Source: a virus (taxonomy: Duplodnaviria > Caudoviricetes). From it: 55,099 nt of DNA. The position numbers and the translations under genes were made by a program. The notes under the pieces are model-generated. The model made no database searches. It had not been told where the DNA came from and saw nothing but the letters and a program-made list of their open reading frames with translations. The first letter of the stretch is position 1. Every line of letters begins with the position of its first letter. Of this stretch, positions 360 through 28,480 are shown piece by piece. Location: positions 1 through 55,099 of the IMG/VR virus record IMGVR_UViG_3300020473_000035. One strand, given 5' to 3'.

Positions 360-698
360 TTACTCTTCTGTCCTCCTCTTGTTATTGTAATACGCTGTAC
401 CCTCGGCCATAAACATAAGCACACCGGGGGGAACTTCGCCGGATGTTGCGCCTCCATGCTTGATAATCAAGTCACGCACAACACCAACAGGCACGTATGG
501 ATAAACTGTATCAGTTGGATCGTTAAATGTTTCAGCATAACCGTCAAGCATAGGATCTGCACTGCTCGGAAAACCAAGCTCAACCTCAATATACGGTCCA
601 TAGTCATCACGCGGACAACTATACTTATGTTTACCTGCCTGGATAGATACACTATAACCATCTTGACAATAAACACGTCTATACTGCTTATTGTCCAT
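360..698 (-). CDS. hypothetical phage protein
   Basis: 112-aa ORF, overlaps upstream stop, GAGG RBS. Confidence 0.75.
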   Translation of the reverse strand: MDNKQYRRVYCQDGYSVSIQAGKHKYSCPRDDYGPYIEVELGFPSSADPMLDGYAETFNDPTDTVYPYVPVGVVRDLIIKHGGATSGEVPPGVLMFMAEGTAYYNNKRRTEE

Positions 699-894
699 CT
701 TTTCTTTCCTCGCTTATCGAGCTTATAACGTCCATTGCGTTCAGGCGAACCAGCGGAGTCCAGCCCGTATCAATGTGGATACGCGCACAATCAGCGTTAG
801 CGATACTTTTGAAACCTTTAACGATCCCCACTCTGCCGATTAAACCGCCAGCGCTACACCATTTATTTACGCGAACTAAATCACCGACTTTCAT
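688..894 (-). CDS. MKVGDLV-family small SH3/KOW-like protein
   Basis: MKVGDLVRV start, AGGAGA RBS, GIV strand. Confidence 0.75.
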   Translation of the reverse strand: MKVGDLVRVNKWCSAGGLIGRVGIVKGFKSIANADCARIHIDTGWTPLVRLNAMDVISSISEERKDGQ

Positions 895-1079
895 CATCTT
901 TCTCCTATATTGTAAAACCAACACCCAATAGAATAGGAGGTGCTTCCAACAAGATAAGATACACGATGATGCCACCGATAATCTTTATCATCGAATGGTA
1001 CGTCAAAAGCATCGAACCATCGAAAAGTAAACTCGCAAAATACGAATCCCAACCAATCTGTCAAATCACCGACTTTCAT
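894..1079 (-). CDS. small protein with MKVGD start (divergent body)
   Basis: Conserved junction GGAGGTTATCAATGAAAGTCGGTGAT. Confidence 0.65.
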   Translation of the reverse strand: MKVGDLTDWLGFVFCEFTFRWFDAFDVPFDDKDYRWHHRVSYLVGSTSYSIGCWFYNIGER

Positions 1080-1263
1080 TGATAACCTCCAACCATTTCT
1101 TGGGTTCCCAAGCTTGTTCTTGGTAATCAAACCAATACACACACACGCGAGTGTTACGAGGATCGCTGTAGTCTTTCATTTTGACCACCACGCCAAACTC
1201 GGCTTTGTTCCCTGCTTCTCGGCTGTACTCGCCAGGCATTATTACCAGATCACCGACTTTCAC
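1066..1263 (-). CDS. MKVGDLV-family small protein
   Basis: MKVGDLV...GVVV...LEVINESR; GTG start in junction motif. Confidence 0.8.
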   Translation of the reverse strand: MKVGDLVIMPGEYSREAGNKAEFGVVVKMKDYSDPRNTRVCVYWFDYQEQAWEPKKWLEVINESR

Positions 1264-1426
1264 TTATAACCTCCACAGGCTGAAGATGGTGACGAATAAC
1301 GGTCATTATAGAGCCATGCCAAAAGAGTCTTGCGACTGGCCGCCCGCGCTCTGAATGCCATCCGAGAATAATGCCGGTGCCCCGCACTGTTCCCCACTTG
1401 TGTTTGACCAGATCACCGACTTTCAT
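1250..1426 (-). CDS. MKVGDLV-family small protein (58 aa, not in ORF track)
   Basis: Hand-translated MKVGDLVKHKWGTVRGTGIILG...VEVISESR. Confidence 0.8.
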   Translation of the reverse strand: MKVGDLVKHKWGTVRGTGIILGWHSERGRPVARLFWHGSIMTVIRHHLQPVEVISESR

Positions 1427-1580
1427 CACTTACAACCTTCAGTTCCCACGGTCGAAACCACATACGTTGTTCGGGGAATCTCGCGAACACAATGCGAAAC
1501 AACGGGCCATCATGCTGCAACGCTTTCGCCATAACAACACCGAAACCATAGTCACAATGTACTATATCACCTATTTTCAC
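1413..1580 (-). CDS. MKVGDLV-family small protein (55 aa, not in ORF track)
   Basis: Hand-translated MKIGDIVHCDYGFGVVM...LKVVSDESR. Confidence 0.8.
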   Translation of the reverse strand: MKIGDIVHCDYGFGVVMAKALQHDGPLFRIVFARFPEQRMWFRPWELKVVSDESR

Positions 1581-1755
1581 TTACAACCTCCAATATAGCA
1601 TATGTCGCGGTGAAGCCTTCGCCGTCAAGACCGAGACAGTCATACGTCGTCACACTGCGCTCTTGAAAATAATCGAAGGACTCGCGCACTCTCACAATAA
1701 TACCCATCAAGTCGTCAGAGTGCCCGACAACACGCACCAGATCACCTATTTTCAC
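1567..1755 (-). CDS. MKVGDLV-family small protein
   Basis: MKIGDLVRV...GIIV...LEVVSENR. Confidence 0.8.
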   Translation of the reverse strand: MKIGDLVRVVGHSDDLMGIIVRVRESFDYFQERSVTTYDCLGLDGEGFTATYAILEVVSENR

Positions 1756-1909
1756 TTATAACCTCCCATTCGGTGGGATCGAGCCACCATGATCGCTTTC
1801 CTTTGTACTGTCCTTCAAGTTCAAAAACCTGATAGTGTCCCGGCATGACTTTGATAACAATCCCACGTGGGCCACCGTCTTTATACTGGACCAAATCACC
1901 GACTTCCAT
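1742..1909 (-). CDS. MKVGDLV-family small protein
   Basis: MEVGDLVQY...GIVI...WEVISENR. Confidence 0.8.
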   Translation of the reverse strand: MEVGDLVQYKDGGPRGIVIKVMPGHYQVFELEGQYKGKRSWWLDPTEWEVISENR

Positions 1910-2093
1910 TGGCAACCTCGTAATAGTTAGCATGATCGCGGATCACTCTCCCGTCCGTCAACAAGATCTGAATCAAGATACGCCCGCCGGGAAGGAAGCC
2001 GCTCCAACTCTTAAGCAAAACGCCCATATGACTTTCTCCATTATTGCGGATGATCCCCTCTTCATTGCTCTTGATCAGGTCGCCGATTTGCAT
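1896..2093 (-). CDS. MKVGDLV-family small protein
   Basis: MQIGDLIK...GVLL...YEVANGSR. Confidence 0.8.
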   Translation of the reverse strand: MQIGDLIKSNEEGIIRNNGESHMGVLLKSWSGFLPGGRILIQILLTDGRVIRDHANYYEVANGSR

Positions 2094-2305
2094 TAAACGC
2101 TTTCCTCCAAAGGTTTGAGGTGCTTACCGGGAATGTGAAACCCGTACATGATGCCATTAACAATAAAACGCACTTGGAAGTGGGGTAATCCGTCATCGGT
2201 CGCATCACCGGGGATCCATTCTTTAACCAGAAGCCCGATATTGCCCTCGATACGGGAATAACCCCGATCAGGGTGGACTTGAACCAGATCACCGACTTTG
2301 ATCAC
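2093..2305 (-). CDS. MKVGDLV-family small protein
   Basis: Probable GTG start MIKVGDLVQV after GGGAG; ORF can extend to 2419. Confidence 0.7.
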   Translation of the reverse strand: MIKVGDLVQVHPDRGYSRIEGNIGLLVKEWIPGDATDDGLPHFQVRFIVNGIMYGFHIPGKHLKPLEESV

Positions 2306-2410
2306 GCTCCCAGAAGCCCCCAGAGCGCCACAGGAGCCGCTTGAGCGGCTTGTACGACCCTGGACAGCCTGGAGGCGTGTGGAGTGCCCTGAAGGGCTTT
2401 GTGAGGCTTG
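2301..2410. other. 10-bp-phased GC repeat tract (candidate DNA-wrapping/strong gyrase site)
   Basis: cagaagcccc/cagagcgcca/caggagccgc/ttgagcggct...ggaggcgtgt/ggagtgccct/gaagggcttt/gtgaggcttg. Confidence 0.4.
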
Positions 2411-2415
2411 TACGC

Positions 2416-2625
2416 TCATGCGCTTGCAGGCTCCACGGTAGCGGCGAACACGTTGGCAAACTGCATCTCAAGATCGGGCGTCATGTTGCCATCGGCGCGG
2501 GTCTTCTGCATCTCCGCGAAAAGTCCCATTTGAAGCACCATAGCGTTCAGCGAGGTCTGGGCGCGCTCCAGGGGTCCGAGAGCGGGCTGGGTAGAAGTAG
2601 AGGAAGAAAGGGCTGTATCAGTCAT
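2416..2625 (-). CDS. hypothetical protein
   Basis: 69-aa ORF, GGAGA RBS. Confidence 0.7.
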   Translation of the reverse strand: MTDTALSSSTSTQPALGPLERAQTSLNAMVLQMGLFAEMQKTRADGNMTPDLEMQFANVFAATVEPASA

Positions 2626-2666
2626 TTAGTAGTCTCCGAGAAAGAAGAGGGAAGGAAAAGGTTTGT

Positions 2667-2951
2667 TTAGCCTTGCGCGAGGATCGCGGCAAGCTGGGCG
2701 GCGGTAAGGTGCTCAACGTTGATCGTCTTCACCTTGTGGACGGTGATCTCGGCTCCAGGCTTGCGAGCGGCGCGGATAGAGCCACCATCACAGGCAAGGA
2801 CGTATTCGCCACGGTTCGACTTGCGCGGACGGAAGGTGCCACCAGCCAGCTTGATACCTGCTTTCTTAGCGGCTGCGCGAATCTGGCGCTTGCCATCATT
2901 CCAAGAAACAGAGGAAGAACCAGGGGTAGAAGAGAGAAGTCCGATTTTCAT
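2667..2951 (-). CDS. small basic hypothetical protein
   Basis: First ORF downstream of promoter at 3008-3061; start MKIGLL chosen. Confidence 0.65.
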   Translation of the reverse strand: MKIGLLSSTPGSSSVSWNDGKRQIRAAAKKAGIKLAGGTFRPRKSNRGEYVLACDGGSIRAARKPGAEITVHKVKTINVEHLTAAQLAAILAQG

Positions 2952-3007
2952 AGGGTCAAAGTCCTGGGAAGGAGGGGAGCGACGGTTAAACCTCAACCGT
3001 CAAAGAC

Positions 3008-3061
3008 ATTATCTCACATGCGAACGAAAAGGTCAAGAGAAGTCTGTCAACTAAATGTCAA
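3008..3061 (-). promoter_or_regulatory. triple-TTGAC early promoter element A
   Basis: TTGACA-N5-TTGACA-N8-TTGACC-N17-GATAAT. Confidence 0.8.
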
Positions 3062-3279
3062 GAGATTTTCTCAACCCACATCGGGTGAAACTTCAGGATG
3101 GAAGTACCAAACTGGACACGGTATAGAATCTCGCCTTGTCTCCATGGGCGTTCGTCAGGCGCAACGACTTCCACGATCAAGCCCGTTCGGTGCGCGGGCA
3201 TGTCGGGGTCATGCGTACCTGGGCGGATCCTGACGAGATCGCCCACTTCCAAAGGTTTATTTCGGGTCTTCGTATCCAT
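3058..3279 (-). CDS. MKVGDLV-family small protein
   Basis: LEVGDLVRI...TGLIVEV...YRVQF. Confidence 0.75.
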   Translation of the reverse strand: MDTKTRNKPLEVGDLVRIRPGTHDPDMPAHRTGLIVEVVAPDERPWRQGEILYRVQFGTSILKFHPMWVEKIS

Positions 3280-3466
3280 CGGGGGTTGTTTGGGGCATCA
3301 AAAACGAAGGAACATACTCGTTTTCTGGGGTATACGGCTCAAGCTCCATAGGCGGGAGCGCTTCGAGGATCTGATCGAGGATGGCGCGAAGGTATGCAAT
3401 ATCCTCCTCGATCTCGGCGTCTTCCTTGGCTTTTCGGTACTCTGAAAGGTTTACAAGGTTGTCCAT
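3257..3466 (-). CDS. acidic hypothetical protein
   Basis: MDNLVNLSEYRK start with GAGG RBS, TAATG coupling. Confidence 0.7.
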   Translation of the reverse strand: MDNLVNLSEYRKAKEDAEIEEDIAYLRAILDQILEALPPMELEPYTPENEYVPSFLMPQTTPDGYEDPK

Positions 3467-3777
3467 TAGAACGGCACCTCTTCCATCCATCCAGTGCCGG
3501 AAAGCGGCGATACATCCCAGACTTTCGGGTGCATGACCAGATCAGCCACGCCCTTCGCCAGTCCGACATGAACGCTGGTGGTGTGGGACTGGAAAGTGCC
3601 GGTAGCAGCGGTGTAATCAGCGACAACGCACGCATTACCGGCGCGCATTCCGATCTTCAAGCCATACGAAAATAGAGCTTTGCCGTCTGTTGTCAGGGCG
3701 CGCTTGGAACTGTGTGCGGGCTGACCTTTAGACCAGCGCTCGATCACGCCACGGTTGTTTGTTCTGATTGATTTCAT
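3466..3777 (-). CDS. hypothetical protein
   Basis: 103-aa ORF, GAGG RBS. Confidence 0.75.
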   Translation of the reverse strand: MKSIRTNNRGVIERWSKGQPAHSSKRALTTDGKALFSYGLKIGMRAGNACVVADYTAATGTFQSHTTSVHVGLAKGVADLVMHPKVWDVSPLSGTGWMEEVPF

Positions 3778-3791
3778 AGGTTTGTCCTCTC

Positions 3792-5063
3792 TTATACGTC
3801 AATCGCGATGACGCGCTCTTGGGTTTGGAAGTAGGGGCGATCTGCATACTCTTTGGTGGTCATCCACATCCGTTGGCATGCGCTTGAAATGGGCTTTGGA
3901 GCCATCATATCGGTGAGGATGATGTGACCGTCAAAGTTGTGCTCATTGACATAGCGGGTGGGCGCATTAAAGCAGGTTCCACCGCACATAACGCGCTCCC
4001 ATACGCGGGTCTGACCTTTCTTCCAGACATAAATCTTGTCTTCACCGACCACTGAATCGAAGGGGATCACGGTGAACTCGGCAACATCGGCAAGCTCATT
4101 CAACTCGGAGAAGAACGCGGCAAGCATGCGATCATCCACGGATCCGCTTTGATCGATGCTAATGGCGATCTTGGCATGGCGACGAACGCGCTTGCCTGGG
4201 TGGATGCGAGGAAAACGACGGTTCAAGCGTCGAGGCGTGGAGCGGCGATCTGAACGCTGGGAGGTCTTGACGAAATAACGCAGTACCTTCCTCCAATCTA
4301 CGCGGGTGGTGATGCGGTCCATGATCTCTTTACGCATGCCAGCCGAAACAGATCCCCAGTTGCGGGCTTTCTCCGCGTCTTCTGCGGCTTTCTTGACGGC
4401 TTCCTTCAAGCGCTCTTTAGCGATCTCGTTCGCGGTGCCATCGGTGTCACCGAAAGCGTCGTGGTCGTCGAAAGAGTCCATTCCACCGAAAGGATCGCCA
4501 TTCCCAGGCTGACCCTGACCGCTTCCAGGCTCGCCGGGTTGCCCCTGACCATCGCCTTCGCCGCCCTCTGGATCGCCTTCGCCCATCTTCTTAAGAGCTT
4601 CCAGATACCATTCGTAAGTCATGTTTGCGGGAAGGTCAGCGAACGGTCCTTCGCCTGGAAGGCAGCCTTTCATCGGCTCGCCTGAAGGCATGAGAGGACC
4701 GGGATCGCTCTCACATGGCAGTTTGCCAACCATCTCGGGCAGACCGTTGATCGCAAGGTCCATCGCGATATTGTCGATGCGGCGGATGCCCTCGGAGGGC
4801 TTGCGACCCGTGACATGCTCCAGAATGATGTGATAGAACTCATGCATCAATACGCCAAGTTTATGCTCGTCTTTCAACTGGGCGAAGAACTCTGGATTGT
4901 ACATAAGCTCGAACTGCTGGCGATCAGGGTTGACGCGCACGCCAGCGGTCGGGATCGCGGTCGTCGGGGTCTTGTCGATCCGCCGCGACAACGACGCGAA
5001 AAACGGCTCCTGCATGAGCAGGCGAGCAGTGTGAAGATTAAGGTTGAAGGGGGCTTCAGACAC
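3792..5063 (-). CDS. metallopeptidase-VWA domain protein (DUF2201-like, MoxR partner)
   Basis: HEFYH zincin motif; DQSGS MIDAS, GGT and ILTD VWA motifs; G/E/P-rich linker. Confidence 0.85.
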   Translation of the reverse strand: MSEAPFNLNLHTARLLMQEPFFASLSRRIDKTPTTAIPTAGVRVNPDRQQFELMYNPEFFAQLKDEHKLGVLMHEFYHIILEHVTGRKPSEGIRRIDNIAMDLAINGLPEMVGKLPCESDPGPLMPSGEPMKGCLPGEGPFADLPANMTYEWYLEALKKMGEGDPEGGEGDGQGQPGEPGSGQGQPGNGDPFGGMDSFDDHDAFGDTDGTANEIAKERLKEAVKKAAEDAEKARNWGSVSAGMRKEIMDRITTRVDWRKVLRYFVKTSQRSDRRSTPRRLNRRFPRIHPGKRVRRHAKIAISIDQSGSVDDRMLAAFFSELNELADVAEFTVIPFDSVVGEDKIYVWKKGQTRVWERVMCGGTCFNAPTRYVNEHNFDGHIILTDMMAPKPISSACQRMWMTTKEYADRPYFQTQERVIAIDV

Positions 5064-5089
5064 GGGGCAACTCCTTGATCATATACCTA

Positions 5090-5143
5090 AGTATACAGGA
5101 AGAATCAAAAAAGGTCAAGCGATCTTTGTCAAGAGAATGTCAG
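5090..5143 (-). promoter_or_regulatory. triple-TTGAC early promoter element B
   Basis: CTGACA-N5-TTGACA-N8-TTGACC-N17-TATACT. Confidence 0.8.
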
Positions 5144-5421
5144 GACTGCTCATCTTCGTTAAAAGCGGCTTCGATCTCGGCAATGTCCGCCACGGTCATC
5201 TTCTTCTCGGCTTTTCGACGCTTGTTTTGAGCAGCCATCAGCTTGCGGTATCGGCTCGGAGTGTGCTTGCAAACGGCGATATTCTCGATTCCGATGCGCT
5301 CCATGCGTCGAAGGGATTCATTGGATGCCGCGAGAGTATCGGGCTTTGTAAGGATGGTTTCGGTCGCTTTGATGCGCCCGTCCACGATGGCGATGTCAGT
5401 TTTGCTCACGTAGTACTTCAA
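5140..5421 (-). CDS. hypothetical protein
   Basis: TTG start after AGGAGA, downstream of promoter C. Confidence 0.65.
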   Translation of the reverse strand: MKYYVSKTDIAIVDGRIKATETILTKPDTLAASNESLRRMERIGIENIAVCKHTPSRYRKLMAAQNKRRKAEKKMTVADIAEIEAAFNEDEQS

Positions 5422-5446
5422 GGTCGATCTCCTAACTTGATGTCTC

Positions 5447-5500
5447 ATTGTCTCATATGCGAGAGAGAAAGTCAAGGTTTTTTTGTCAAAGGAATGTCAA
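5447..5500 (-). promoter_or_regulatory. triple-TTGAC early promoter element C
   Basis: TTGACA-N5-TTGACA-N8-TTGACT-N17-GACAAT. Confidence 0.75.
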
Positions 5501-5560
5501 GAGAATGAGGGTCAATCTGGGTTCATGCGCGGCATGCCAGGAAGACCGAAAAGGTTTATT

Positions 5561-5660
5561 TGAGCGCTCTGTGAGGCTCCTGAAGGCTTGCTAACGGCTC
5601 CCAGGTATGACGACAGCCCAGAGCGCTCACAGGGGCTCACAGAGGCTCCTGGGCGCTGCT
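5561..5660. other. 10-bp-phased GCTC tract (candidate DNA-wrapping/strong gyrase site)
   Basis: GCT(C/T/G)/GCCC at 5566, 5576, 5586, 5597 then 5616, 5625, 5635, 5645, 5655. Confidence 0.45.
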
Positions 5661-5861
5661 ACGGCGGTACTCCGCAGCCAGTTGTAGATCGTGCTTCCAG
5701 AATGACCGTCCATTCTCGAAAACCCTGTAAAGACGCCGATCATCAGTGGATCCACGCCCATAGGTCGAGCGCCCACTTGGGCGACTTTCGAGGATAATAG
5801 CGGTTTTTCCTGTTTTAACACGGATTAGAAGCTCTCCAATCTCAAAGGTTTGTTTGTTCAT
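5637..5861 (-). CDS. SH3/KOW-like small protein (MKVGDLV-related)
   Basis: FEIGELLIRV...AIIL...YRVF. Confidence 0.7.
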   Translation of the reverse strand: MNKQTFEIGELLIRVKTGKTAIILESRPSGRSTYGRGSTDDRRLYRVFENGRSFWKHDLQLAAEYRRSSAQEPL

Positions 5862-6091
5862 AGGGGATCGCCCTCCTTGATCGGCATGAGCGCATCACCG
5901 TGAAAAATCATCTCCAAGCCGCTCTTTAACCACTTGATGCGGTATCTCGGCTTGAAAAGTCCATCACGAGCGACGACGCCCACAACCATGCCAGGACCAG
6001 ACTTTTCAGTAAAAGCTGAATCGGGCGATCCCCTCGCGAGGCGGTTGGTCATGTAGACCAACTCGCCCAGAGAGTAGTTGTAATCCTCCAT
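5858..6091 (-). CDS. SH3/KOW-like small protein (MKVGDLV-related)
   Basis: YSLGELVY...GMVVGV...YRIKW. Confidence 0.7.
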   Translation of the reverse strand: MEDYNYSLGELVYMTNRLARGSPDSAFTEKSGPGMVVGVVARDGLFKPRYRIKWLKSGLEMIFHGDALMPIKEGDPL

Positions 6092-7168
6092 TTAGCCACC
6101 CAGGATGGTCACCAAGTGCTCGCTAACACGGACGCCGCTGGTAGTGTCGGCTTTGTGGAGCGCGACCACGTTGGGGACCATATCAGCGTCACCCAGGACG
6201 GTCCAGAGCTTCATAGCCACCTCGGAAGGCAGGGAAACGAAGTAATCGGCGAGGTTCTTGATCTGAACGTCGGTGAGTTCCGTCTTGAAGGTTTCAGCCG
6301 CCTCGAACTTCTCGATCATGGCGGCGTGATCGTTGATGCCCCACTCGGAAGTCTTGGCGATCTCGCCGTTGTCCAGCAGATCTTCGATGGTCACTTGCCA
6401 GGAGTAGTTGACCACGAAGTCCTTCAGTTGAACAGCCGCCTCGAAACCGAGGAATGCATTGGCGAGGTTGAAAAGGAGATCGAGATCGCCCTTCTCCTCG
6501 AAAACGCCCGCTGGAGTAGCGGTATCGTTGAAGCGCTTCCAAGAGCGACGAGAAGGATAAACCTTGTTCGGCTCGAAGTCGCTGCGATGCTCCAAGTGGG
6601 TGCGGTTCTGGTTGATGAAGTCCCAAACGACGCTTGCAACCTTGCCATTCGCCCACTTGAGCCAATCTTCGTCAGACGGATCCACGTCGAAGACGGTCCA
6701 GCGGTCGAGTTCGGCGGGATCCATCTCACCGACTTGGTACTGGGCACCGTGCTCGCCACCGTTGACGGCAGCGATGATCAGGGTTTCAGGGTGAAGATGC
6801 CAGCCATTGATCTTGCGGCTATCGGTAAGCTCGAAAAGACCCTGGCGAACCTCCATAGTCGCGCGGTCGACCTCATCCAAGAACAGGACGACGGGCTGCT
6901 CGCAAGCGGTCACGAGCCAATCGGGAGCGTTCCACGTGGTAGCCTTGCGACCATTGATAGCGGTGTCCGCCGTATCTGGCAGACCGAGAAGATCGCCCTC
7001 GGTCATCTGGGAAGCGCGGCGCTCGACGACGGGAAGCTGGCGATCACGGGCGATCATGTAGACCACCTCGGATTTACCGACACCGTGACGACCACGGATA
7101 AGGACGGGCAAACGCGCATCGAGGATGTGGGGGGCGACAGAAAGGAAGGTGGCGAAGTCTACAGCCAT
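6092..7168 (-). CDS. MoxR-type AAA+ ATPase
   Basis: Walker A GRHGVGKS, Walker B LFLDEVDR, MDPAELDR, SRRSW sensor; near VWA gene. Confidence 0.9.
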   Translation of the reverse strand: MAVDFATFLSVAPHILDARLPVLIRGRHGVGKSEVVYMIARDRQLPVVERRASQMTEGDLLGLPDTADTAINGRKATTWNAPDWLVTACEQPVVLFLDEVDRATMEVRQGLFELTDSRKINGWHLHPETLIIAAVNGGEHGAQYQVGEMDPAELDRWTVFDVDPSDEDWLKWANGKVASVVWDFINQNRTHLEHRSDFEPNKVYPSRRSWKRFNDTATPAGVFEEKGDLDLLFNLANAFLGFEAAVQLKDFVVNYSWQVTIEDLLDNGEIAKTSEWGINDHAAMIEKFEAAETFKTELTDVQIKNLADYFVSLPSEVAMKLWTVLGDADMVPNVVALHKADTTSGVRVSEHLVTILGG

Positions 7169-7211
7169 GTGGTTTCTCCAGGGGAGTGTGAAGTTTTTAG
7201 CTTACTCTGTA

Positions 7212-7265
7212 AGTATACAGGAAGAAAGAAAGAAGGTCAAGTGTTTTTTGTCAAGAGGGTGTCAA
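7212..7265 (-). promoter_or_regulatory. triple-TTGAC early promoter element D
   Basis: TTGACA-N5-TTGACA-N8-TTGACC-N17-TATACT. Confidence 0.8.
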
Positions 7266-7274
7266 GCCTCGATT

Positions 7275-7496
7275 TTACCCATTGCAGGCGGGATGACCCC
7301 AGTTGTTATACTGCCAATCGCTGATCTCTTGATCTTTGCACAGGCTATCAGTCCAGTTGTTCCACGCTTCGCGGCGAGCGGGATAATCGGGATCGCCGTC
7401 GCGCTCCCATCGCTCTTGGATCAGGGGGAGAATGTGAACCTCGAAATATGCACATGCATCCTCGAAGGTCATGACGTAGGGAAGGTTTTTAGCCAT
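7275..7496 (-). CDS. hypothetical phage protein
   Basis: MAKNLPY start after AGGAG; AWNNWTDSLCKD motif. Confidence 0.75.
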   Translation of the reverse strand: MAKNLPYVMTFEDACAYFEVHILPLIQERWERDGDPDYPARREAWNNWTDSLCKDQEISDWQYNNWGHPACNG

Positions 7497-7527
7497 TGGC
7501 GAACTCCTATTGCTCAATGATGGATCC

Positions 7528-7581
7528 ATTATCTCATAGGCGAGAAGAAAGATCAAGGGTTTTTTGTCAGGTAAATGTCAA
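7528..7581 (-). promoter_or_regulatory. triple-TTGAC early promoter element E
   Basis: TTGACA-N5-CTGACA-N8-TTGATC-N17-GATAAT. Confidence 0.75.
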
Positions 7582-7612
7582 GAGTGAAAAGAGTAGGAAG
7601 AAAGTATTAAAA

Positions 7613-7792
7613 GAGGTGGTGGGGAGTGCCGCTGTCCTCGTCGCGCCACATGACCAGCCGCGTTTTCACTGCCCGCTGTGGGGCGCGCTCACCTAAGCCC
7701 CCATTCCCGAAGGCCTTATTATCCTTACAGTGAGCAAGGGTTCATTCACGGCTTTGAACCCCGGTTTACATTAAAAATCTCCCCACCACCTC
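7613..7792 (-). ncRNA. putative structured ncRNA (~180 nt, unclassified)
   Basis: Perfect 14-bp closing inverted repeat (7613-7626/7779-7792), three internal stems, UUCG and GAAA tetraloops on minus strand, U-run after. Confidence 0.6.
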
Positions 7793-7835
7793 ATTACAGG
7801 CCACTTTATAGATCGCGCATAATACGCTTTCCTCC

Positions 7836-8645
7836 TTATTTCTTCTTCTTTGGGGTGCGAGCGCGCTTAAGCTGGCGCTCCTCGCAGATAAAGGTTTGCG
7901 CTCCACCGATGGGAAGGAGCTTATAGAGCTTGTTTCCGCGTGCTGCGCTGGTGGGCACTGCGATATTGGTGGCGATCACCATCGCGAGATTGTCTTTGTT
8001 AGGGCAGCTTTGAGATTGTGCGTAGGTCGCACCAGCACCAAGGGCCACCATGCTCCCCACTGCATATTTCGGCTCGGCAAACCACCCAGCGTAGATCTTA
8101 CGGATGAACTTGTTATCAGTCACGCGGTTGTACTCGTCCATAGTGGGAACCATGGAAGTATCAGCGAAATAAGCGGCCACCTGTTTGCCGTAATACCCGC
8201 TGCTGCGGTAGTATGACATGGCAATAGCATAGCGCTCTGCTTTCTCGTCATTCCACGCGGCATACCACTGATCGCGGGCGTCCATAGCTTCATCGCTGTA
8301 TTTCCCCTGGATCTTCTCCAGAATCTCCTTCTGACGCTCGGAAAGGTTGCGGCCGCCCAAAAGCTGGGTTCGGATGCTGCTAACAAAGCGGTCATCCCAT
8401 GAGCCGTTGTCCACAGCGGACACGCGCCCCTTGAGCACGTTGATCTCGTCCAGACCCTCGGCAGGTTCGGGGCGCGTAGCATAGCGCTCTTCCATCTGGA
8501 CGAAGCAGCGACGGCGGCCAGCGGTCAGTGAACCCTTGCGCTTGTAGTGGCTGTAAAGGCTCTCCGCAAAGCTGCGATCCCGGTCGGAAACGTAGTCTTT
8601 CGCGAGAAGGGCAGCGAAGCGGTCATGGTAGGTAGTGCGGGGCAT
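7836..8645 (-). CDS. hypothetical protein, two helical repeats plus C-terminal SH3-like domain
   Basis: DRSFAESL..SLTAGR / DDRFVSSI..NLSERQ repeat; YAVGSMV C-terminal domain; AGGAG RBS. Confidence 0.8.
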   Translation of the reverse strand: MPRTTYHDRFAALLAKDYVSDRDRSFAESLYSHYKRKGSLTAGRRRCFVQMEERYATRPEPAEGLDEINVLKGRVSAVDNGSWDDRFVSSIRTQLLGGRNLSERQKEILEKIQGKYSDEAMDARDQWYAAWNDEKAERYAIAMSYYRSSGYYGKQVAAYFADTSMVPTMDEYNRVTDNKFIRKIYAGWFAEPKYAVGSMVALGAGATYAQSQSCPNKDNLAMVIATNIAVPTSAARGNKLYKLLPIGGAQTFICEERQLKRARTPKKKK

Positions 8646-8671
8646 GTGGCTCCTTTGATGATTACTCTGTA

Positions 8672-8725
8672 AGTATACAGGACGCGGAAGAAAAGATCAA
8701 GCCTTTTCTGTCAAGAGAATGTCAA
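8672..8725 (-). promoter_or_regulatory. triple-TTGAC early promoter element F
   Basis: TTGACA-N5-TTGACA-N8-TTGATC-N17-TATACT. Confidence 0.8.
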
Positions 8726-8901
8726 GAACCCTCTTCGAGAGCTTTAACGGCGGGCAAAGTCTCCTTTAGGGCGGTGAGAATCTCATCACACTCCTTCAGA
8801 AAGGGATCCATGCCTTGACCGGTAGCACTGTGCTGGACCGTCGCACGGTAGTGCTGGAGCGCGGACCAAAGAATGGAGCGCTGGCGTTCAGAAAGTTCCA
8901 T
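8722..8901 (-). CDS. hypothetical protein
   Basis: MELSERQ start after AAGGAG. Confidence 0.7.
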   Translation of the reverse strand: MELSERQRSILWSALQHYRATVQHSATGQGMDPFLKECDEILTALKETLPAVKALEEGS

Positions 8902-8928
8902 GTTGTAGTTCTCCTTGAGCATGTATAC

Positions 8929-8983
8929 ATTATCCGATCTTTTCGAGGTAAAGTCAACAGAAAAGTTGTCAAGAGAGTGTCAA
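8929..8983 (-). promoter_or_regulatory. triple-TTGAC early promoter element G
   Basis: TTGACA-N5-TTGACA-N9-TTGACT-N17-GATAAT. Confidence 0.8.
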
Positions 8984-9285: not shown

Positions 9286-9326
9286 AAGGTTTATTTGCTC
9301 CGTGGTTGAATGAAAAGGTTTGTTTT

Positions 9327-19071: not shown

Positions 19072-19074
19072 GAT

Positions 19075-19355: not shown

Positions 19356-19384
19356 ATTATATACTATACAGAATGAGAAGTCAA
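19356..19384 (-). promoter_or_regulatory. sigma70-type promoter
   Basis: TTGACT-N17-TATAAT. Confidence 0.7.
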
Positions 19385-19385
19385 G

Positions 19386-19923: not shown

Positions 19924-20153
19924 TTTTTACAACCTCCGCAAGTGCGTTTCATCTTTTTGCGTTCGGCTGGGTCTACTTGCAACTTCTGAAAATTTTCGAT
20001 AGCATCCTCCATCACTCGACCTCTTGCCAAAACTTTAATCTTATTGTCTTGCCTGCGAAATGCGCCGCACATCACAATTTGTTTGGAGGGCACATGAAGC
20101 AGATATTCCCCAGGATAAACCACGCTCTCTTCAGTGATCACATCAAATTTCAT
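19920..20153 (-). CDS. hypothetical protein
   Basis: 77 aa, GAGG RBS, C-terminal CGGC. Confidence 0.75.
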   Translation of the reverse strand: MKFDVITEESVVYPGEYLLHVPSKQIVMCGAFRRQDNKIKVLARGRVMEDAIENFQKLQVDPAERKKMKRTCGGCKK

Positions 20154-22525: not shown

Positions 22526-25500
22526 CTATACTTGTTTTTGATAACTAAAGAACACAGGCACATCTTCCAAGCCCGCTCTTTTGGCGAACCAAACTATATC
22601 TTCATTCCCTGTTATTTTTACTCTCCCATTTTGACCCAGTGCCACATACACAGGCATCTGTGGGCCTTCCTTAATAAAGTGTTTATATCTCCCATCAAAA
22701 TCATTTTTATCGCCACGATAGAATCGTGATGTGTGCGGCCACAGTTCTGCGACGGGCATCATCACGTGATATTGCATTTGGTTGGTGTTCATTGGAGTAT
22801 CATATATTTGAACGCCACCCTCTGCCCAATCGTCAACGACTACATCTAATGATACACGCGGTGTGACCATCTGCGGGAGATATTGATCGTGGGGTGGTGC
22901 AGCATAGCCCAAGCCGCCCCACTCGCGCAGTGCCATATGTGGTGCATCTGCCAATTCGGGAATGCCTCGATCTCTCACTGTCACGCCCGTCACCTCTTTC
23001 TCGATGGACGGCACCAACACAGTATCGCGATAAATATCACGCGCTTGCTGACCAGACAACTCAAACTTGATTTCATACACACGATACAGCGCGTTCTGTC
23101 CCACATTCCGCTCTAAATCAACTCTATGACTAACAGTCGTCACCTCTCGGATACCACGAATCTGGTTTTCAACTTGACTGTCGGTGCCTGCGACATTAGT
23201 ATTAACCACACAACCCAGCGCAACCTTGTAAACGCGTAGATCAATTGGCTCGCGCTCGTTGAGCATCTGATCGATTCTGTCGATTTGCTCTTCAAGACTT
23301 TCATTCACGCTTCCGCGAATAATACGAACAAACTCTTCTCTGTCGCCTCGAACCAAAGCATCCATAGCATTAGAGCGTTCTTCGTCACTCAATCCTTGAA
23401 GTGTATTCTCTGCCTCAACAGACTCCTCGGGAGACATCCCCAGTGTACGTTGCATTACAGCTTTGTCGTCTGCACCCGGCTTCCAATCGCTGCCCCAAGT
23501 ATAACTTCCTGCGTTAGCAACCCCGCCTAGGCGCATCTTGGCGCGGACAATTCCGTCCCATCCGTTAGGTTTATCGCCGTCATTGTCCCATATGCCATAA
23601 GGGCGCGCTGTGCCTTTATGCAAGGTGAGAAGGTAGTTGTCAATTGCGGCCAGTTTTTCAAATCGGCTAAACTTGCCCCAGTTTTGTTGAATAAACATGA
23701 TAAGCAACATGGCTTGCTCTGCGGCTTGATCGCCCTGTTCTGCGCTACTATTGTAGACGGACGATAACGACTGGGTGAGCCAGCGCATGTCGCTACCGTC
23801 GAGCTTGCGCGCCTCTCTATCTTTGACCTCCTTGATTTTGTTATCCAAAAACTGCTCATAAGTGTCAATGACAATCTTGATGATTTGGTTGGGATATCGA
23901 TCAATGAAGCGCATGAACTCGAAAGCACCCTTAATATCAGCCTCATCGGAGGATGCCTCAACAACGAGTTTCATTGTAAAGTAAACTTCCCCTGGCTGGG
24001 GAGGTGTGGTGTTAATTCTTGAGTTTATGTTAAACCTTATCATCGCATGTCCGAAATCAAGCGGCTCGTACGAAGGGCGGTTGTAGCGATCACCGAACTC
24101 AAACTCTAATTGTTGTTCTACGTATCCATTGGCAGCATCAACCAAAGGTTTTGAATTCTGAATGACCATGTTGGTAAAAGGAACGCCGGGCCTTATCATA
24201 CGTTTTTCAATTGTTCCGCTGTTACCAAAAATGCTTCGCAACGCCTCGGGTGTGTTGCCAATAGTCAGAGGAAATTTGCCAGGAACGTAAACGAGTGTGC
24301 TAGGTGTGTTGCTAACATTCACAGGTTTAAAGTTGAACCACACCTCTCCATCGTCATCGATATCATCATTCTCGTCAATACCAAGCACTTCCCAGTTAAC
24401 CAGTTCTTTACTCTGCTCAACAATATCATCAGCCAACCGATCAAAGTCATTAGGTGGAAGGTATCCTCCGAGTACTAAAGCGCGCCGGATCTTCTGGAAC
24501 TTTTCGTCGTATTCATCATCTATTTCGTCTATAAGATTGTCAACAAAACCATCATATTCTTCGGGCGTGCTCCCATTATCGAAATCAAATCGAAACCTTA
24601 CATCAATGGTGTCCGAACTCACATCCCATTCAGTGTTATTGCTGTACTCACCAAGCGCATCGTCTAAGAGTCGCGTAAAGTTACTTCGTACGCCCCAATC
24701 ACCACCCCATGGCTTTGGAATCGGTGTGTGTTCTCGCTCTTCGTCTGGCCAGACATATCCCTCTTCATTGTTGGGATCAACGGCGCCTTCCCACTCAATA
24801 TCAAAGCTAAAATCTACGTCGGCGCCGCCGATTACATACGGTTGCTCGTCCCCCTCGACTTCTGCGTCGAAATGTATATGCTCTGCACGGTTCTGTGCGG
24901 TATTCAACACTTCTTCAAGTTCGTTCTGTGCCTCTTCAAACGGATCGTCTTCATCCTCTGTCTCGTGCTGGACGTTGCTATAGCCGTATTCATTAATATC
25001 TTGTCCAGACATCGAAAAGAAGGCGTCAAGCAGAGGTCCGTCGTTAGTATCTTCATAAGAGCCACCATAGCGGATAAGATAGCGCGCGCGGGGAAGCTCC
25101 AGATGATCATCGTCCATAAACTTGAATTTCTGTGCTTCCCACGCCCATTCTTGGACAGCAGTACGGAAACGATCAGCGCCCTCATCGCCGTATAGGCGCC
25201 TCTCTGGCACGGTAAACCAGTCGCCGCTTGCACTATCAAAGAACTTACGCATGCGTACGCGCGAGGTTGCGCCGATGCCAGGAATTCCACGCTGGGGATC
25301 TCGGAAAATCTCTTGCTGGTCGAAATCAGAGATGGGCACAGGTGTGGGAAGATTGTCGTCGTGTGGCCAAGTTGGCTTATTGTCCAGCTTGGCGTGGACG
25401 GCATCACGCACCATATCGAGAGTAATCATTTCCGTCATCTTGTCACCAAAAGCCCCGCCATAATCGCGCCATCCGTGATTCCACGCCTTAATGTCGGTCT

Positions 25501-26491
25501 TTATGAGGTCCAGCAGAAACTCCAAATGTTCTGTGTCATTCAACGCTTTGTGTGCCGCGTCAACGCGAGGGCGGTAGTCCAGCCAACGCCACAAAGATCT
25601 CTCTGCCTCGCGCTGCAGTTGGGCATCTGTATCGTCTGCTGCAGTACGCAAGAAGCGATCCAGTTCGCTCTTCTTGACCAAATATGCGATCAGTCCGTTG
25701 CCCTTTGATTCTGCCACAGCGCACTTAAAGTGGCTGCGCCCCTCTTTGTGGCAAGACTCCATTCCAGGCAGATCGCTCATCCGCAACACATCAACAGGAT
25801 GACGCGAAAGGATAATACTCCAGTCGTCATCTCGAATGTTGCCCTCGAAAGCATCCTCAATCAAAGTATAGGTATCTTCGTTTTTTGTATAAAAGGTTTG
25901 TTTCTGGCGCCACCAGTCCAACAACTCGGGGCGCAATCTCTTAAACTTTACTGCGTTCTGAATCGCGCGGGACATTGTGGTCTTATTTGTTTTCGTGATT
26001 GTTTCTCCCTCGCGAGGACCAGCGGGGATCGTGTATTCAAACTCTTTGACCAACTCAAAAGAGGCAACACGAACCTCGACATAATAACTCTCAACGGGTC
26101 GCGGATCGGGGTTGGTTTCTGGATCGGGGATCCCAAACCCAGGTGGCAGTTCTCCAACCCTACGCTGTTTCTTTTGTTTAACCTGCTTAGTGGGGAACGC
26201 CACCGCAGGACCATGGTTAACGTAGGGAGGATGCCAGCCTTCATCTTTAAGGACGCGGACAATCTCTAAAATCTTTCCGGTGTCACTGTCATTAAGAGGG
26301 ATAACCTTGCGCATTGCGCCATCAAAAATATCATCGAACTCCGTCTGAATTTCGGGTCCATTGTCAGCCATGAAACTGAACGTTTCTTCTGCTGCATATT
26401 CACTAATCTCGTCAAGACGTTGTGGCTTCTTAGCGCCAGAAGGTTTGATTTGTCGAAGGTTTCTAAACCATAAGTCGGTTGCAATACTCAT
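22526..26491 (-). CDS. large acidic multidomain protein, probable virion component
   Basis: 1321 aa; LxE motifs; C-terminal degenerate ParB/Srx-like segment. Confidence 0.8.
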   Translation of the reverse strand: MSIATDLWFRNLRQIKPSGAKKPQRLDEISEYAAEETFSFMADNGPEIQTEFDDIFDGAMRKVIPLNDSDTGKILEIVRVLKDEGWHPPYVNHGPAVAFPTKQVKQKKQRRVGELPPGFGIPDPETNPDPRPVESYYVEVRVASFELVKEFEYTIPAGPREGETITKTNKTTMSRAIQNAVKFKRLRPELLDWWRQKQTFYTKNEDTYTLIEDAFEGNIRDDDWSIILSRHPVDVLRMSDLPGMESCHKEGRSHFKCAVAESKGNGLIAYLVKKSELDRFLRTAADDTDAQLQREAERSLWRWLDYRPRVDAAHKALNDTEHLEFLLDLIKTDIKAWNHGWRDYGGAFGDKMTEMITLDMVRDAVHAKLDNKPTWPHDDNLPTPVPISDFDQQEIFRDPQRGIPGIGATSRVRMRKFFDSASGDWFTVPERRLYGDEGADRFRTAVQEWAWEAQKFKFMDDDHLELPRARYLIRYGGSYEDTNDGPLLDAFFSMSGQDINEYGYSNVQHETEDEDDPFEEAQNELEEVLNTAQNRAEHIHFDAEVEGDEQPYVIGGADVDFSFDIEWEGAVDPNNEEGYVWPDEEREHTPIPKPWGGDWGVRSNFTRLLDDALGEYSNNTEWDVSSDTIDVRFRFDFDNGSTPEEYDGFVDNLIDEIDDEYDEKFQKIRRALVLGGYLPPNDFDRLADDIVEQSKELVNWEVLGIDENDDIDDDGEVWFNFKPVNVSNTPSTLVYVPGKFPLTIGNTPEALRSIFGNSGTIEKRMIRPGVPFTNMVIQNSKPLVDAANGYVEQQLEFEFGDRYNRPSYEPLDFGHAMIRFNINSRINTTPPQPGEVYFTMKLVVEASSDEADIKGAFEFMRFIDRYPNQIIKIVIDTYEQFLDNKIKEVKDREARKLDGSDMRWLTQSLSSVYNSSAEQGDQAAEQAMLLIMFIQQNWGKFSRFEKLAAIDNYLLTLHKGTARPYGIWDNDGDKPNGWDGIVRAKMRLGGVANAGSYTWGSDWKPGADDKAVMQRTLGMSPEESVEAENTLQGLSDEERSNAMDALVRGDREEFVRIIRGSVNESLEEQIDRIDQMLNEREPIDLRVYKVALGCVVNTNVAGTDSQVENQIRGIREVTTVSHRVDLERNVGQNALYRVYEIKFELSGQQARDIYRDTVLVPSIEKEVTGVTVRDRGIPELADAPHMALREWGGLGYAAPPHDQYLPQMVTPRVSLDVVVDDWAEGGVQIYDTPMNTNQMQYHVMMPVAELWPHTSRFYRGDKNDFDGRYKHFIKEGPQMPVYVALGQNGRVKITGNEDIVWFAKRAGLEDVPVFFSYQKQV

Positions 26492-26509: not shown

Positions 26510-26518
26510 ATAAATAGT
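26510..26518 (-). promoter_or_regulatory. candidate late-promoter motif ACTATTTAT
   Basis: Intergenic, immediately upstream of GGAG RBS of the 1321-aa gene. Confidence 0.45.
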
Positions 26519-26532
26519 TGGCTTTTAGTGAT

Positions 26533-26883
26533 TTATCTCCATAGCAATTGGATTAGTGCTATCACAAATGCTAGTCCAACACACACCATAGTCTTAACTG
26601 TAAACATGCTTTCATGTAAAAAATACCAAGTTAAAAATGGGAAGGTCAAATAAGATAGCGCGAAGATCAAGAAACGCGGCCCCCAAACTTCCCCCATCTC
26701 TGCGTATGCCATTTGAATGCCAAGCCAGAAACATAAGCCTGCTGGAAGAGAAAAAGCGAAAAGCGCAAGAAACGGCTTGTCTTTCCACCACTCCCAAACA
26801 AACTGCGAATTTAAATGGAACCAGCCAAATGTCTGTCCGATAGCGAACAAAGCACATGCCATGAGTAATTTAGAAGTTAGCAA
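26533..26883 (-). CDS. 4-TM small membrane protein (SMR/DMT-like)
   Basis: Four hydrophobic segments in 116 aa. Confidence 0.75.
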   Translation of the reverse strand: MLTSKLLMACALFAIGQTFGWFHLNSQFVWEWWKDKPFLALFAFSLPAGLCFWLGIQMAYAEMGEVWGPRFLIFALSYLTFPFLTWYFLHESMFTVKTMVCVGLAFVIALIQLLWR

Positions 26884-27628
26884 TTACAAGCTCCTCCGCA
26901 ACATCTCTTTTTTTAACCTCGCGCCCATATTTATCCACCATTCGAATATTATATTTTTCGTACATCTTAAATAGACGCGCGTGATACTTGTAGACAATGA
27001 CCACTCTCTTATTAAGAGTCTGGATGCGCGATTCCAATTCACGATGGTTAAAGGAGGCATCCTCGGCGCCTCGACTTTTCCCATATTCAAATAAATTAAA
27101 ACTAAATCTACCTGCGGGAATCAAAAGATAATCCGCGCCTCGCGCATTGTGTAACCCCTCTAAACAGTTCTCCGCATTGTCCCACAAGGGAAAAAAATTA
27201 TTCCCATCAAAATTCTTGATGTAACTAAGTGATATCGGATTGAATTGAGTTTTATCTAAAACGCCTGCTGATACTTGATTGCTATCAGAGCATCGATTTA
27301 AGATAAAAAACAATGCAGCACGAGTGCGTTCATTGCCAACTGCTGACCAGTTATCTTGTAAAAAATAAAATAATTCCGTATCAATCTTGGGATAAAATTC
27401 TTCAGCCGCTGCAGCAACCGCTTGATTATTTTCCTTTAAAGCCTTCCAAAATTCAAATACCCTATACTTGTTTGTGTGGGCCACAACTCTGCGACCTGCA
27501 GCCGCTAGCGCAAGCTCCATTGTTCCGTCATATAACAAGAACGAACTCACGTCCGATTCGGGAGGAATTAGTTTCTTTACAACACTGGTGCCTTTGAATT
27601 GATGAGCTACTCTAAGTGGAGACTTCAT
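26870..27628 (-). CDS. degenerate Dam (D12-class) methyltransferase-like protein
   Basis: RAALFFILNR, FNHRELE and EELVIANF match the Dam fold; FxGxG and DPPY absent. Confidence 0.65.
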   Translation of the reverse strand: MKSPLRVAHQFKGTSVVKKLIPPESDVSSFLLYDGTMELALAAAGRRVVAHTNKYRVFEFWKALKENNQAVAAAAEEFYPKIDTELFYFLQDNWSAVGNERTRAALFFILNRCSDSNQVSAGVLDKTQFNPISLSYIKNFDGNNFFPLWDNAENCLEGLHNARGADYLLIPAGRFSFNLFEYGKSRGAEDASFNHRELESRIQTLNKRVVIVYKYHARLFKMYEKYNIRMVDKYGREVKKRDVAEELVIANF

Positions 27629-27947
27629 CAGCTTGTTCCCTTTCCAAAAACTCCCTTAAGACAGAAGGATCCACATTCTCTTCCATAGGCTGAGATGATT
27701 GAGCTTTAAAAGAAACATAAGAAGCAACAATAGCCGATGCATCGCGTAACGCATGATCAACATCTGCAAGCCGTTGGCGTACACTATCGATCTCTTCGAT
27801 AGTCTCCAAACTCAAGACTTGGCCACCGCCGCTTAAAGGCGCGGGAAGGTTGCGTAGTTTCTCCATTGCGCCGTTAACCATACGCAGCATTTCTTCTGGC
27901 AACTCCTCCATATCTATAGAATATTGAATATTAATCCTTTGTCCCAT
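27612..27947 (-). CDS. hypothetical protein
   Basis: 111 aa, GAGG RBS. Confidence 0.75.
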   Translation of the reverse strand: MGQRINIQYSIDMEELPEEMLRMVNGAMEKLRNLPAPLSGGGQVLSLETIEEIDSVRQRLADVDHALRDASAIVASYVSFKAQSSQPMEENVDPSVLREFLEREQADEVST

Positions 27948-27948
27948 T

Positions 27949-28242
27949 CTAACCTCTCAATAATTGTTTTGCTGAATTCTGAAGTTTTGTTTCAACTGTA
28001 TCGGGGGCACCAATAACTACAATTTCAGTACCTGATTGTCCCCTATTTATTGTCAGCTTGGAAAAACGATGACTCACGTCCAAGCCTTCACTGAGCATTC
28101 CTCGCTCATTTAAATCTTGAATTCTTCTCTCCTCGCGGATCATGACAACATGTTCCGGATTCACAAAGACCTCCCGCAAAGTATAGCTATTGGGTGTCGT
28201 TACAGCACCATTGACACATACTTCTGTTAATCTAACCAACAT
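27949..28242 (-). CDS. hypothetical protein (FlbD-like pattern)
   Basis: MLVRLT...VFVNPEHVVMIRE; GGAG RBS. Confidence 0.7.
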   Translation of the reverse strand: MLVRLTEVCVNGAVTTPNSYTLREVFVNPEHVVMIREERRIQDLNERGMLSEGLDVSHRFSKLTINRGQSGTEIVVIGAPDTVETKLQNSAKQLLRG

Positions 28243-28480
28243 TGACTCCCTCCATTGGATAAACATCTTTTTCATGAACTGCCCATGATTGCCCTCTGGC
28301 ATAAATCTGAATTAAACGATCATTTGTTTTAGTGTTCAACTCTGCAATGCCACCCATACAGATTGCTGTTATGGGGCGCTCTGTGGTCATGTAGGGGGCT
28401 GTATTTTGACTTGCGTCTGACCACAGCATAACCGCCTGTGGGATATAAACCAAGTCGCCTTCATTAAATTTTCGTGGCAT
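28232..28480 (-). CDS. MKVGDLV-related small protein
   Basis: FNEGDLVYI. Confidence 0.7.
   Translation of the reverse strand: MPRKFNEGDLVYIPQAVMLWSDASQNTAPYMTTERPITAICMGGIAELNTKTNDRLIQIYARGQSWAVHEKDVYPMEGVNVG

Follow-up and report, generated by a model that had tools for sequence, protein, structure and literature searches.

In phages of the T4 type, PeSL-mediated modular shuffling takes place in hyperplastic regions, and the PeSL border is reported to consist of a promoter and a stem–loop terminator between unrelated genes (PMC2839356, PMC4122927). We describe here a comparable region in the IMG/VR virus record IMGVR_UViG_3300020473_000035 (Duplodnaviria; Caudoviricetes; positions 1 to 55,099), a stretch of 55,099 nucleotides (nt) which is called the window throughout and which holds about 25 to 28 copies of a gene for a small beta-barrel protein. 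Like the PeSL regions, it has functionally uncharacterized small genes in variable islands that conserved genes flank, and a short conserved border sequence at which insertions, deletions and replacements occur. It differs from the PeSL described there in that the border lies inside coding sequence, being formed by a ribosome-binding site, a start codon and a 14-nt overlap, and in that nearly all cassettes come from one protein family. A promoter and a stem–loop terminator flanking each cassette were not found; the junction holds the ribosome-binding site and the start codon.

The host-takeover module of the Bacillus phage SPO1, whose genes are not known to share one fold as paralogues or to be linked through a conserved overlap, is similar in being a block of many small early genes with strong host-type promoters and ribosome-binding sites. 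Integrons resemble our region as well, with their population-wide pool of single-gene cassettes which are arrayed and expressed from an upstream promoter, but in the phage the cassettes are joined at a stretch of homologous sequence and are all of one family. Among the 60 window open reading frames (ORFs) scanned there was no integrase, and no attC-like site was noted, the window being 55 kb of about 195 kb; a reverse transcriptase as in diversity-generating retroelements was also absent from these 60 ORFs. On the protein level, laboratory binder libraries have been built on SH3-like folds (Sso7d/affitins and the Fyn-SH3 'fynomers'). The phage proteins are like these engineered scaffolds in that the core of the small barrel stays the same and the surface residues and loops change; unlike the scaffolds, which bind many targets, they are presumed binders only. 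The KOW domains of NusG, Spt5 and uL24 share the SH3-like barrel, whereas the phage barrels stand alone, in tens of copies per genome and with unrelated surfaces. Already known are accordingly the SH3 fold and, from T4-type phages, variable small-gene islands and shuffling border motifs. New are islands filled by one unannotated family, a border that is a coding overlap also carrying a ribosome-binding site and a start codon, and the very large size of the cassette pool. Among the papers that a literature search for such a family listed, none was relevant, which is no proof that it is unpublished.

The polymerase and the MoxR-type ATPase encoded in the window have no cultured relative above about 33% identity, and a megablast comparison of positions 1–20000 with 50,697 phage records gave a match to a tRNA-Arg only. 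The ATPase has 188 relatives in IMG/VR, and for the comparisons below we took 80 related loci with an ATPase identity of 62–90% on contigs of up to about 205 kb. Five related records are rated complete and are 194–206 kb long, two of them with terminal repeats. Since the complete relatives have this size and the sequencing run is labelled 'marine metagenome', we conclude that the window represents 55 kb out of the roughly 195–205 kb genome of a marine phage lineage that is uncultured.

A preliminary description of the window, made from its letters and ORFs, had listed about 30 paralogous ORFs of the MKVGDLV type in several clusters and as singles. The pattern [VIRKPQL]GDL[VI] is found 23 times in the three minus-strand frames and not once in the plus-strand frames, all occurrences lying at 688–18766. 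As candidates we took the 31 minus-strand ORFs with a MKVGDLV-type start, coding for 51–134 amino acids (aa), and built a profile (A1) from 29 of them, which was run against all six-frame ORFs of 40 aa or more in the window and the related loci, 10,928 in number. At an expectation value (E) below 1e-3 this profile matched 504 ORFs on the coding strand of the loci and one on the opposite strand, and a second-round profile made from 485 non-redundant matches found 871 against one. In the window the second-round profile recognizes 25 ORFs at E<1e-3, all on the minus strand; three more candidates are borderline (E 1.6e-3 to 3.1e-3) and three are unsupported (E 0.1, 0.1 and 1.7). The window members were part of the profile training, and the independent control is the strand asymmetry in the loci of the other phages. 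We therefore confirm that the motif is real and far beyond chance. The clusters and the singles at 3058, 5637 and 5858 are where the preliminary description had placed them, but the ORF at 894 is not a member, that at 13505 is unsupported as one, and the single at 28232 is not a demonstrable one. The family members are stand-alone ORFs of 51–96 aa.

A word-seeded search with A1 in 5.8 billion proteins returned 181 candidates and none at E<=1e-3; A1 is too short for this purpose, and even the window members reach only 24–47 bits with it. A tblastn search with the protein of 1066–1263 against the 50,697 phage records gave no match. A profile of 125 diverse members (A3) matched 5,625 of 1.84 billion representative proteins at E<=1e-3. 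Among the best 150 of these matches, 113 are not longer than 105 aa, the strict motif stands at residue 1 in 92, and the overlap tail described below closes the sequence in 82 of the 113. The public proteins P0004, P0008, P0022 and P0002 include in-frame fusions of two family barrels; one protein of this group has 370 aa with five related repeats and reaches DUF1918, PsaE, Tudor_5 and SH3_15 with weak scores. Long proteins in which related repeats are numerous were also among the matches.

The preliminary description had proposed an SH3/KOW/Tudor-like five-strand barrel, and the structure predictions bear this out. The AlphaFold 2 (AF2) model of 1066–1263, calculated with an alignment (A2) of 48 relatives, has a predicted local distance difference test score (pLDDT) of 92.6 and five strands (residues 6–9, 22–30, 39–44, 49–54 and 59–62), and the model of 19075–19323 likewise has five strands with a pLDDT of 75. 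In both models the strands are predicted to be antiparallel and to close into the barrel typical of the small SH3-like proteins. These are the two members folded; the remaining ones are tied to them by the profile. All top structural matches of both models are SH3-like domains. In Foldseek searches with 1066–1263 the PDB matches (PetP, Spt5 KOW, PWWP, Tudor and SH3) are weak, with a best E of 0.025 and a template modeling (TM) score of 0.68, and those in BFVD are unnamed viral proteins with TM scores of 0.7–0.8 and a best E of 1.7e-3. We derive the fold from the strand topology and from match lists that are SH3-like throughout, and not from these weak E-values.

Annotated families gave little. 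The profile against PDB sequences yielded only sub-threshold KOW, Tudor and PWWP rows (Spt5 with E 0.005). The Pfam KOW model (PF00467) matched none of 33 window candidates at E<=0.1 and one of the 125 diverse members (E 0.021), and an NGN domain as in NusG/Spt5 or a ribosomal-protein context was not found next to the barrels, all of them being separate ORFs. DUF2158 (PF09926) stayed below its cut-off of 22.3 bits, the best score being 14.1 bits and for 1742–1909 only. No Pfam family passes for the 33 window candidates, and the 125 diverse members gave only scattered weak Tudor, SH3 and KOW rows. With PHROGs three of the 125 matched at E<=1e-3, each a different PHROG, and the window candidates gave weak rows only, to phrog_16289 and phrog_7219. 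In the ESM Atlas, the 30 clusters closest to the family consist throughout of viral 'hypothetical proteins', none with a Pfam family. Tudor, chromo and PWWP ('royal') domains are marked by an aromatic cage for methylated Lys or Arg. In the members one Trp only is conserved (91%). To sum up, we are almost certain that the ORFs form a real family of SH3-fold (KOW/Tudor-like) five-strand barrel proteins; it is specific to this uncultured marine phage lineage and without Pfam or PHROG annotation.

When the DNA of the members is aligned on the Gly codon, tandem members share nucleotides including the synonymous sites. The 3′ end of the upstream gene reads ...xTG GAG GTT ATA AGT GAA AGT CGG TGA, and the Shine-Dalgarno sequence GGAGGT of the next gene lies inside its Leu/Trp-Glu-Val codons, that is, in the C-terminal LEV strand. 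The ATG or GTG of the next gene falls inside the A(A/G)T GAA codons of the upstream gene and precedes the upstream stop by 14 nt; this stop is the TGA contained in GGT GAT of the next gene. As the LEV codons contain GGAGGT, the C-terminal LEV(I/V) doubles as a ribosome-binding site, and the tails SESR, NESR, NASR and SASR are nothing else than MKVGD or MQVGD of the next gene read in another frame. Part of the protein motif given in the preliminary description is hence a DNA feature. One such junction lies at 1249–1274 on the minus strand, where GGAGGT is found in the codons for LEV, followed by the start codon of the next gene and by the TGA of the upstream one within GGTGAT.

From the coordinates, 11 gene pairs of the window overlap by 14 nt and six by 4 nt; among 896 members of the window and the loci, the overlap is exactly 14 nt in 261 consecutive pairs and 4 nt in 41. 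From 235 unique 14-nt junctions we derived as consensus a module of about 31 nt, TgGAGGT.ATcA followed by aTGaAAGTCGGTGATtTgGT. In its strict form the pattern occurs twice in the window, with none expected, and in at least 119 stretches of IMG/VR. It was also found in five contigs of metagenome-assembled genomes (L085–L089) with one to seven family members each. These genomes are labelled Deltaproteobacteria, Flavobacteriales, Acidiferrobacteraceae, Legionellales and Rubritalea; most likely the five are misbinned phage contigs and carry no host signal. With this geometry the overlaps would couple the translation of neighbouring cassettes along the array, and we consider such coupling highly probable.

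In the closest relatives the backbone genes have about 70–75% nucleotide identity and the arrays do not align at all on the nucleotide level, and few window members have orthologues of at least 50% identity in the loci. A tandem downstream neighbour was observed two or more times for 85 clusters, and in 51 of these the neighbours differ. Of 696 ends of matches of at least 88% identity between loci, 98 lie no more than 25 nt from a family start, against 24.6 +/- 4.7 for randomly placed breakpoints (maximum 41 in 1000 trials), and 21 matches at this nucleotide identity cover exactly one cassette without a collinear match nearby. In two cases a cassette is shared, at 98.9% and 98.8% identity, by phages with an identity of only 76% and 81% in the ATPase gene; in these near-identical pairs the identity runs from junction to junction, the flanks are unrelated and the positions differ. 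Breakpoints at the border motif, as in PeSL shuffling, are thus found here too, in these 98 ends and in the two junction-bounded cassettes.

A further case is the ORF 894–1079 on the minus strand (profile E 1.7), an unrelated small aromatic-rich protein with a MKVGDL start. Its orthologue in another locus (L029:7046–7219) is 67% identical, starts with MFRWLGY and has its own promoter. To judge from this comparison, 894–1079 is a foreign gene which carries the first six codons of the family, the graft having been made at the junction. Breakpoints, single-cassette matches, the 99%-identical cassettes and the graft lead us to propose that single cassettes have moved recently, with crossovers in the conserved module. 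The junction would serve as a short homology patch at which single cassettes are gained, lost and swapped between co-infecting relatives, and the lineage as a whole would possess a very large stock of barrels, alike in their core and different on their surfaces. That cassettes are exchanged at the junction is in our judgement probable, if somewhat less secure than the coupling.

This pool is diverse: at >=55% identity, 553 clusters result from the 896 members, and 405 of them are singletons, although five near-duplicate locus pairs inflate the raw member counts somewhat. In an alignment of 824 non-redundant members the informative positions are MKVGDLV, G-[ILV]-[VI]-[VIL], a loop Gly, the Trp, LEV[IV] and the overlap tail, while all other positions have 0.2–0.5 bits and the loops vary in length. 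The fixed scaffold with a variable remainder that the preliminary description had suggested is therefore borne out by the few informative positions. The isoelectric points range from 4 to 11 with a median of 7.0. Each of the five complete genomes has 17–30 family matches, nearly all in one region of about 25 kb. A recent tandem duplication as source of the paralogues was considered and rejected, the best full-length identity between window members being about 33% and some members being 55–80% identical to the copies of other phages.

The ratio of nonsynonymous to synonymous substitution rates (dN/dS) was determined for 110 ungapped orthologous pairs and has a median of 0.18, all values being below 1. 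Pooled over one pair from each of 46 independent groups, it rises from 0.14 in the core through 0.20 at the variable positions and 0.23 in inserted loops to 0.37 in the tail. By this measure orthologues are under purifying selection, loops included, and the low values indicate that the proteins are real and that each keeps its own surface. The preliminary description had spoken of hypervariable loops; as fast-evolving loops they are not found, since the loop values between orthologues are 0.20–0.23. The variability resides between paralogues, and the diversity would thus reflect an old and large pool of exchanged cassettes and not loops mutating in place.

What these proteins do can be approached from their fold, arrangement and diversity. 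The explanation that we find best overall, and to which we give about an even chance, combines an expanded barrel family, coupled cassettes, exchange at the junction and a function as binders. Each barrel would be made early and would bind a host or competitor target of its own, for host takeover, counter-defence or exclusion. Taken by itself, the assumption of diversified binders of host targets is attractive but stays a little short of even; it is suggested by the fold, which is a common binding module, by surfaces that differ completely and yet are each conserved, by the location of the genes in host-promoter operons of the variable genome part, and by the turnover of copies through replacement. 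More speculative, and in our opinion possible rather than probable, is a population-wide combinatorial library of SH3-fold binders with the coding module of about 31 nt as its universal recombination joint. The module would then be the last barrel strand, ribosome-binding site, next start and recombination joint at once, so that any related phage's cassette could enter any array in frame and expressed, countering host defences, and the library would work as an integron without an integrase.

Several observations weigh against this explanation. Binding and takeover are suggested by fold, position and diversity, and the early expression of the region is presumed from its promoter-like motifs. 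Loop values of 0.20–0.23 between orthologues give no residue-level sign of an ongoing arms race, which would have to act via replacement of cassettes, and the window members are in none of the dN/dS pairs. As to the exchange, breakpoints at gene borders are common in phage mosaics, and alignments of related cassettes enter the conserved junction by construction; for both reasons the fourfold enrichment of breakpoints is by itself no proof of recombination at the junction, and more weight falls on the two cassettes of 99% identity. In the window no recombinase was found, the sole related finding being a FEN-type 5′-3′ exonuclease.

A common target instead of many is the most serious alternative, although we consider it unlikely: all members could act on one target class, namely RNA polymerase, the ribosome or RNA, and through their many copies adjust transcription or translation in the host. 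In structure, and weakly in sequence, the members come closest to the KOW domains of Spt5 and NusG, to uL24, to the PcrA/UvrD Tudor domain and to CarD, and the conserved GDLV...G[IV][VI] resembles the KOW motif, for which the Pfam model scores weakly. The KOW domains of NusG/Spt5 and the Tudor-like domains of UvrD/PcrA and CarD bind RNA polymerase, the ribosome or RNA. Less credible again, and rather improbable, is that the cassettes are mostly selfish or near-neutral passengers which spread by recombination via the junction, are expressed at whatever site they reach and are selected for folding and harmlessness, not for a function directed at the host. Such passengers would agree with the movement of single cassettes between diverged phages and with a content that differs strongly even among close relatives (405 singletons in 553 clusters), but the non-core and loop positions show the degree of constraint that functional proteins usually have (dN/dS 0.20–0.23), 17–30 copies are retained in each of the five complete genomes, and the copies lie in promoter-driven operons with strong ribosome-binding sites.

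Sm and Hfq are SH3-like barrels that form rings of paralogues, and coupled, overlapping genes often encode the subunits of one complex. Neighbouring paralogues could by analogy form mixed oligomers, Sm/Hfq-like rings or filaments, in which coupling provides equal amounts of the subunits. We hold this for very improbable: number, order and identity of the neighbours vary between relatives, which is hard to fit with a fixed assembly, and Sm or Hfq are absent among the 50 structural rows listed for either model, though not thereby excluded. A homodimer prediction with two copies of 1066–1263 gave no support and no verdict either way. Finally, since the junction is conserved at synonymous sites too, the ORFs might be spurious products of a non-coding DNA repeat. 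This has next to no probability, as the ORFs are open between the junctions in 896 cases and on one strand only, dN/dS is far below 1, the barrel models are confident, and the conserved Gly and Trp core positions are far from the junction. The reading that we prefer, exchanged and coupled cassettes for different binders, would have some wider meaning. The barrels would rank among the largest protein families of a single fold in phage 'dark matter' (5,625 representative clusters), absent from Pfam and almost absent from PHROGs, and the coding overlap, as translation coupler and recombination joint, would be a compact route to interchangeable phage genes. If the barrels are binders, they offer a ready-made natural library of small and stable binding proteins and a route to host targets and defences in uncultured marine bacteria.

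Every sizeable ORF of the window lies on the minus strand, as do the features that follow. Sigma-70-like sites number 38 in the window against 21.6 +/- 4.4 in shuffled sequences. Nine minus-strand promoters (3033–13527) contain a triple TTGAC(A) module, for which the shuffles predict none; its boxes are about 11–12 nt apart, and the last one is the −35 box, followed by a 17-nt spacer and a TATAAT-like −10 box. Together with the strong GGAGG sites, the TTGACA/TATAAT promoters would fit a host of proteobacterial type. The predicted promoters head operons in which the cassettes are mostly distal genes, and overlapping members leave no space for a promoter in between. That most members sit behind strong early promoters, as had been noted beforehand, thus applies to the operons but not to the single genes, of which only 14876–15037 and 19075–19323 come first after a promoter.

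The operon that ends with the array 688–2305 is headed by a putative promoter with a triple TTGAC module at 3008–3061. The first member of the array is 2093–2305 (E 3.0e-4), the open frame of which reaches 2419. It is followed by 1896–2093 (E 5.2e-4), 1742–1909 (E 1.5e-12), 1567–1755 (E 3.3e-7), 1413–1580 (E 2.2e-6) and 1250–1426 (E 4.6e-12), each with a 14-nt overlap to the next gene, then by the modelled member 1066–1263, the chimeric ORF and the last gene of the array, 688–894 (E 2.2e-9). The single member 3058–3279 (E 2.6e-7) has 19 full-length relatives in other loci. Upstream, the genes for a DUF2201 metallopeptidase/VWA protein and the MoxR-type AAA ATPase at 3792–7168, both assigned with PHROGs and Pfam, form a conserved backbone of the region. 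Two cassettes directly follow the ATPase gene, the GELV variant 5858–6091 (E 1.1e-4; orthologue 64% identical) and downstream of it the GELL variant 5637–5861 (E 6e-5; orthologue 75% identical).

A promoter with the triple module at 11702–11755 would head the operon 11690–10576, with the members 10904–11074 (E 5.5e-9) and 10752–10907 (E 3.2e-9), both with a 4-nt overlap, and 10576–10755 (E 7.1e-7). Another at 13008–13062 would head the operon 12976–11752, which holds 12111–12296 (E 1.4e-5) and 11921–12124 (E 1.1e-10), both with a 14-nt overlap, and 11752–11934 (E 3.7e-8). The candidate 13505–13753 has a KKGDLV start but an unsupported membership (E 0.1), with one orthologue of 55% identity in locus L059. 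The array 14048–15037 appears to be headed by a sigma-70-like promoter at 15061–15089, and 14876–15037 (E 1.5e-7) is the first gene after it; 14643–14879 (E 4.7e-12, 14-nt overlap), 14474–14656 (E 3.1e-6), the borderline member 14226–14477 (E 2.5e-3, 14-nt overlap) and 14048–14239 (E 6.7e-6) follow. The next group consists of 16177–16401 (E 2.7e-4), 15980–16180 (E 1.1e-4, 14-nt overlap) and 15703–15993 (E 4.6e-5), the last with an N-terminal extension. Four tRNA genes at 16701–18038 (Met, Arg-TCT, Lys-TTT and Leu-TAA), among the few stretches of the region kept in relatives, separate two cassette groups. Beyond them a sigma-70-like site with 11 of 12 matches at 19356–19384 would head 19323–18109, comprising the modelled borderline member 19075–19323 (RGSLV, E 3.1e-3), the borderline 18380–18784 (E 1.6e-3; N-terminal barrel motif with a C-terminal extension of about 70 aa, three relatives in other loci) and 18109–18363 (E 4.5e-4), which has a long first loop. 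The ORF 28232–28480, for which membership is unsupported (E 0.1), is a conserved gene directly after GroEL, with four orthologues of 82–88% identity and the same place in the one locus read (L083).

With PHROGs and Pfam we further assigned a DnaE-type polymerase, a DnaB helicase, a ribonucleotide reductase, a thymidylate synthase, a PurZ-like adenylosuccinate synthetase, GroEL, GroES and two ClpP/S49-type proteases. GroEL (28487–30058) and GroES (49882–50154) are about 20 kb apart. The ORFs 22526–26491 (1321 aa) and 30124–32322 (732 aa) have zero PHROG or Pfam matches. At 37186–39207 a gene for an MspI-like restriction endonuclease adjoins two DNA methyltransferase genes, which together look like a phage-carried restriction-modification system. 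The adenylosuccinate synthetase-like gene is short (39964–40950; phrog_1211, named there as PurZ-type enzyme), and near it are a dUTPase/dCTP-deaminase-like gene (39179–39643) and an IMP dehydrogenase/GMP reductase-like gene (34689–35735); these three neighbouring genes of nucleotide metabolism may point to DNA with a modified purine, 2-aminoadenine.

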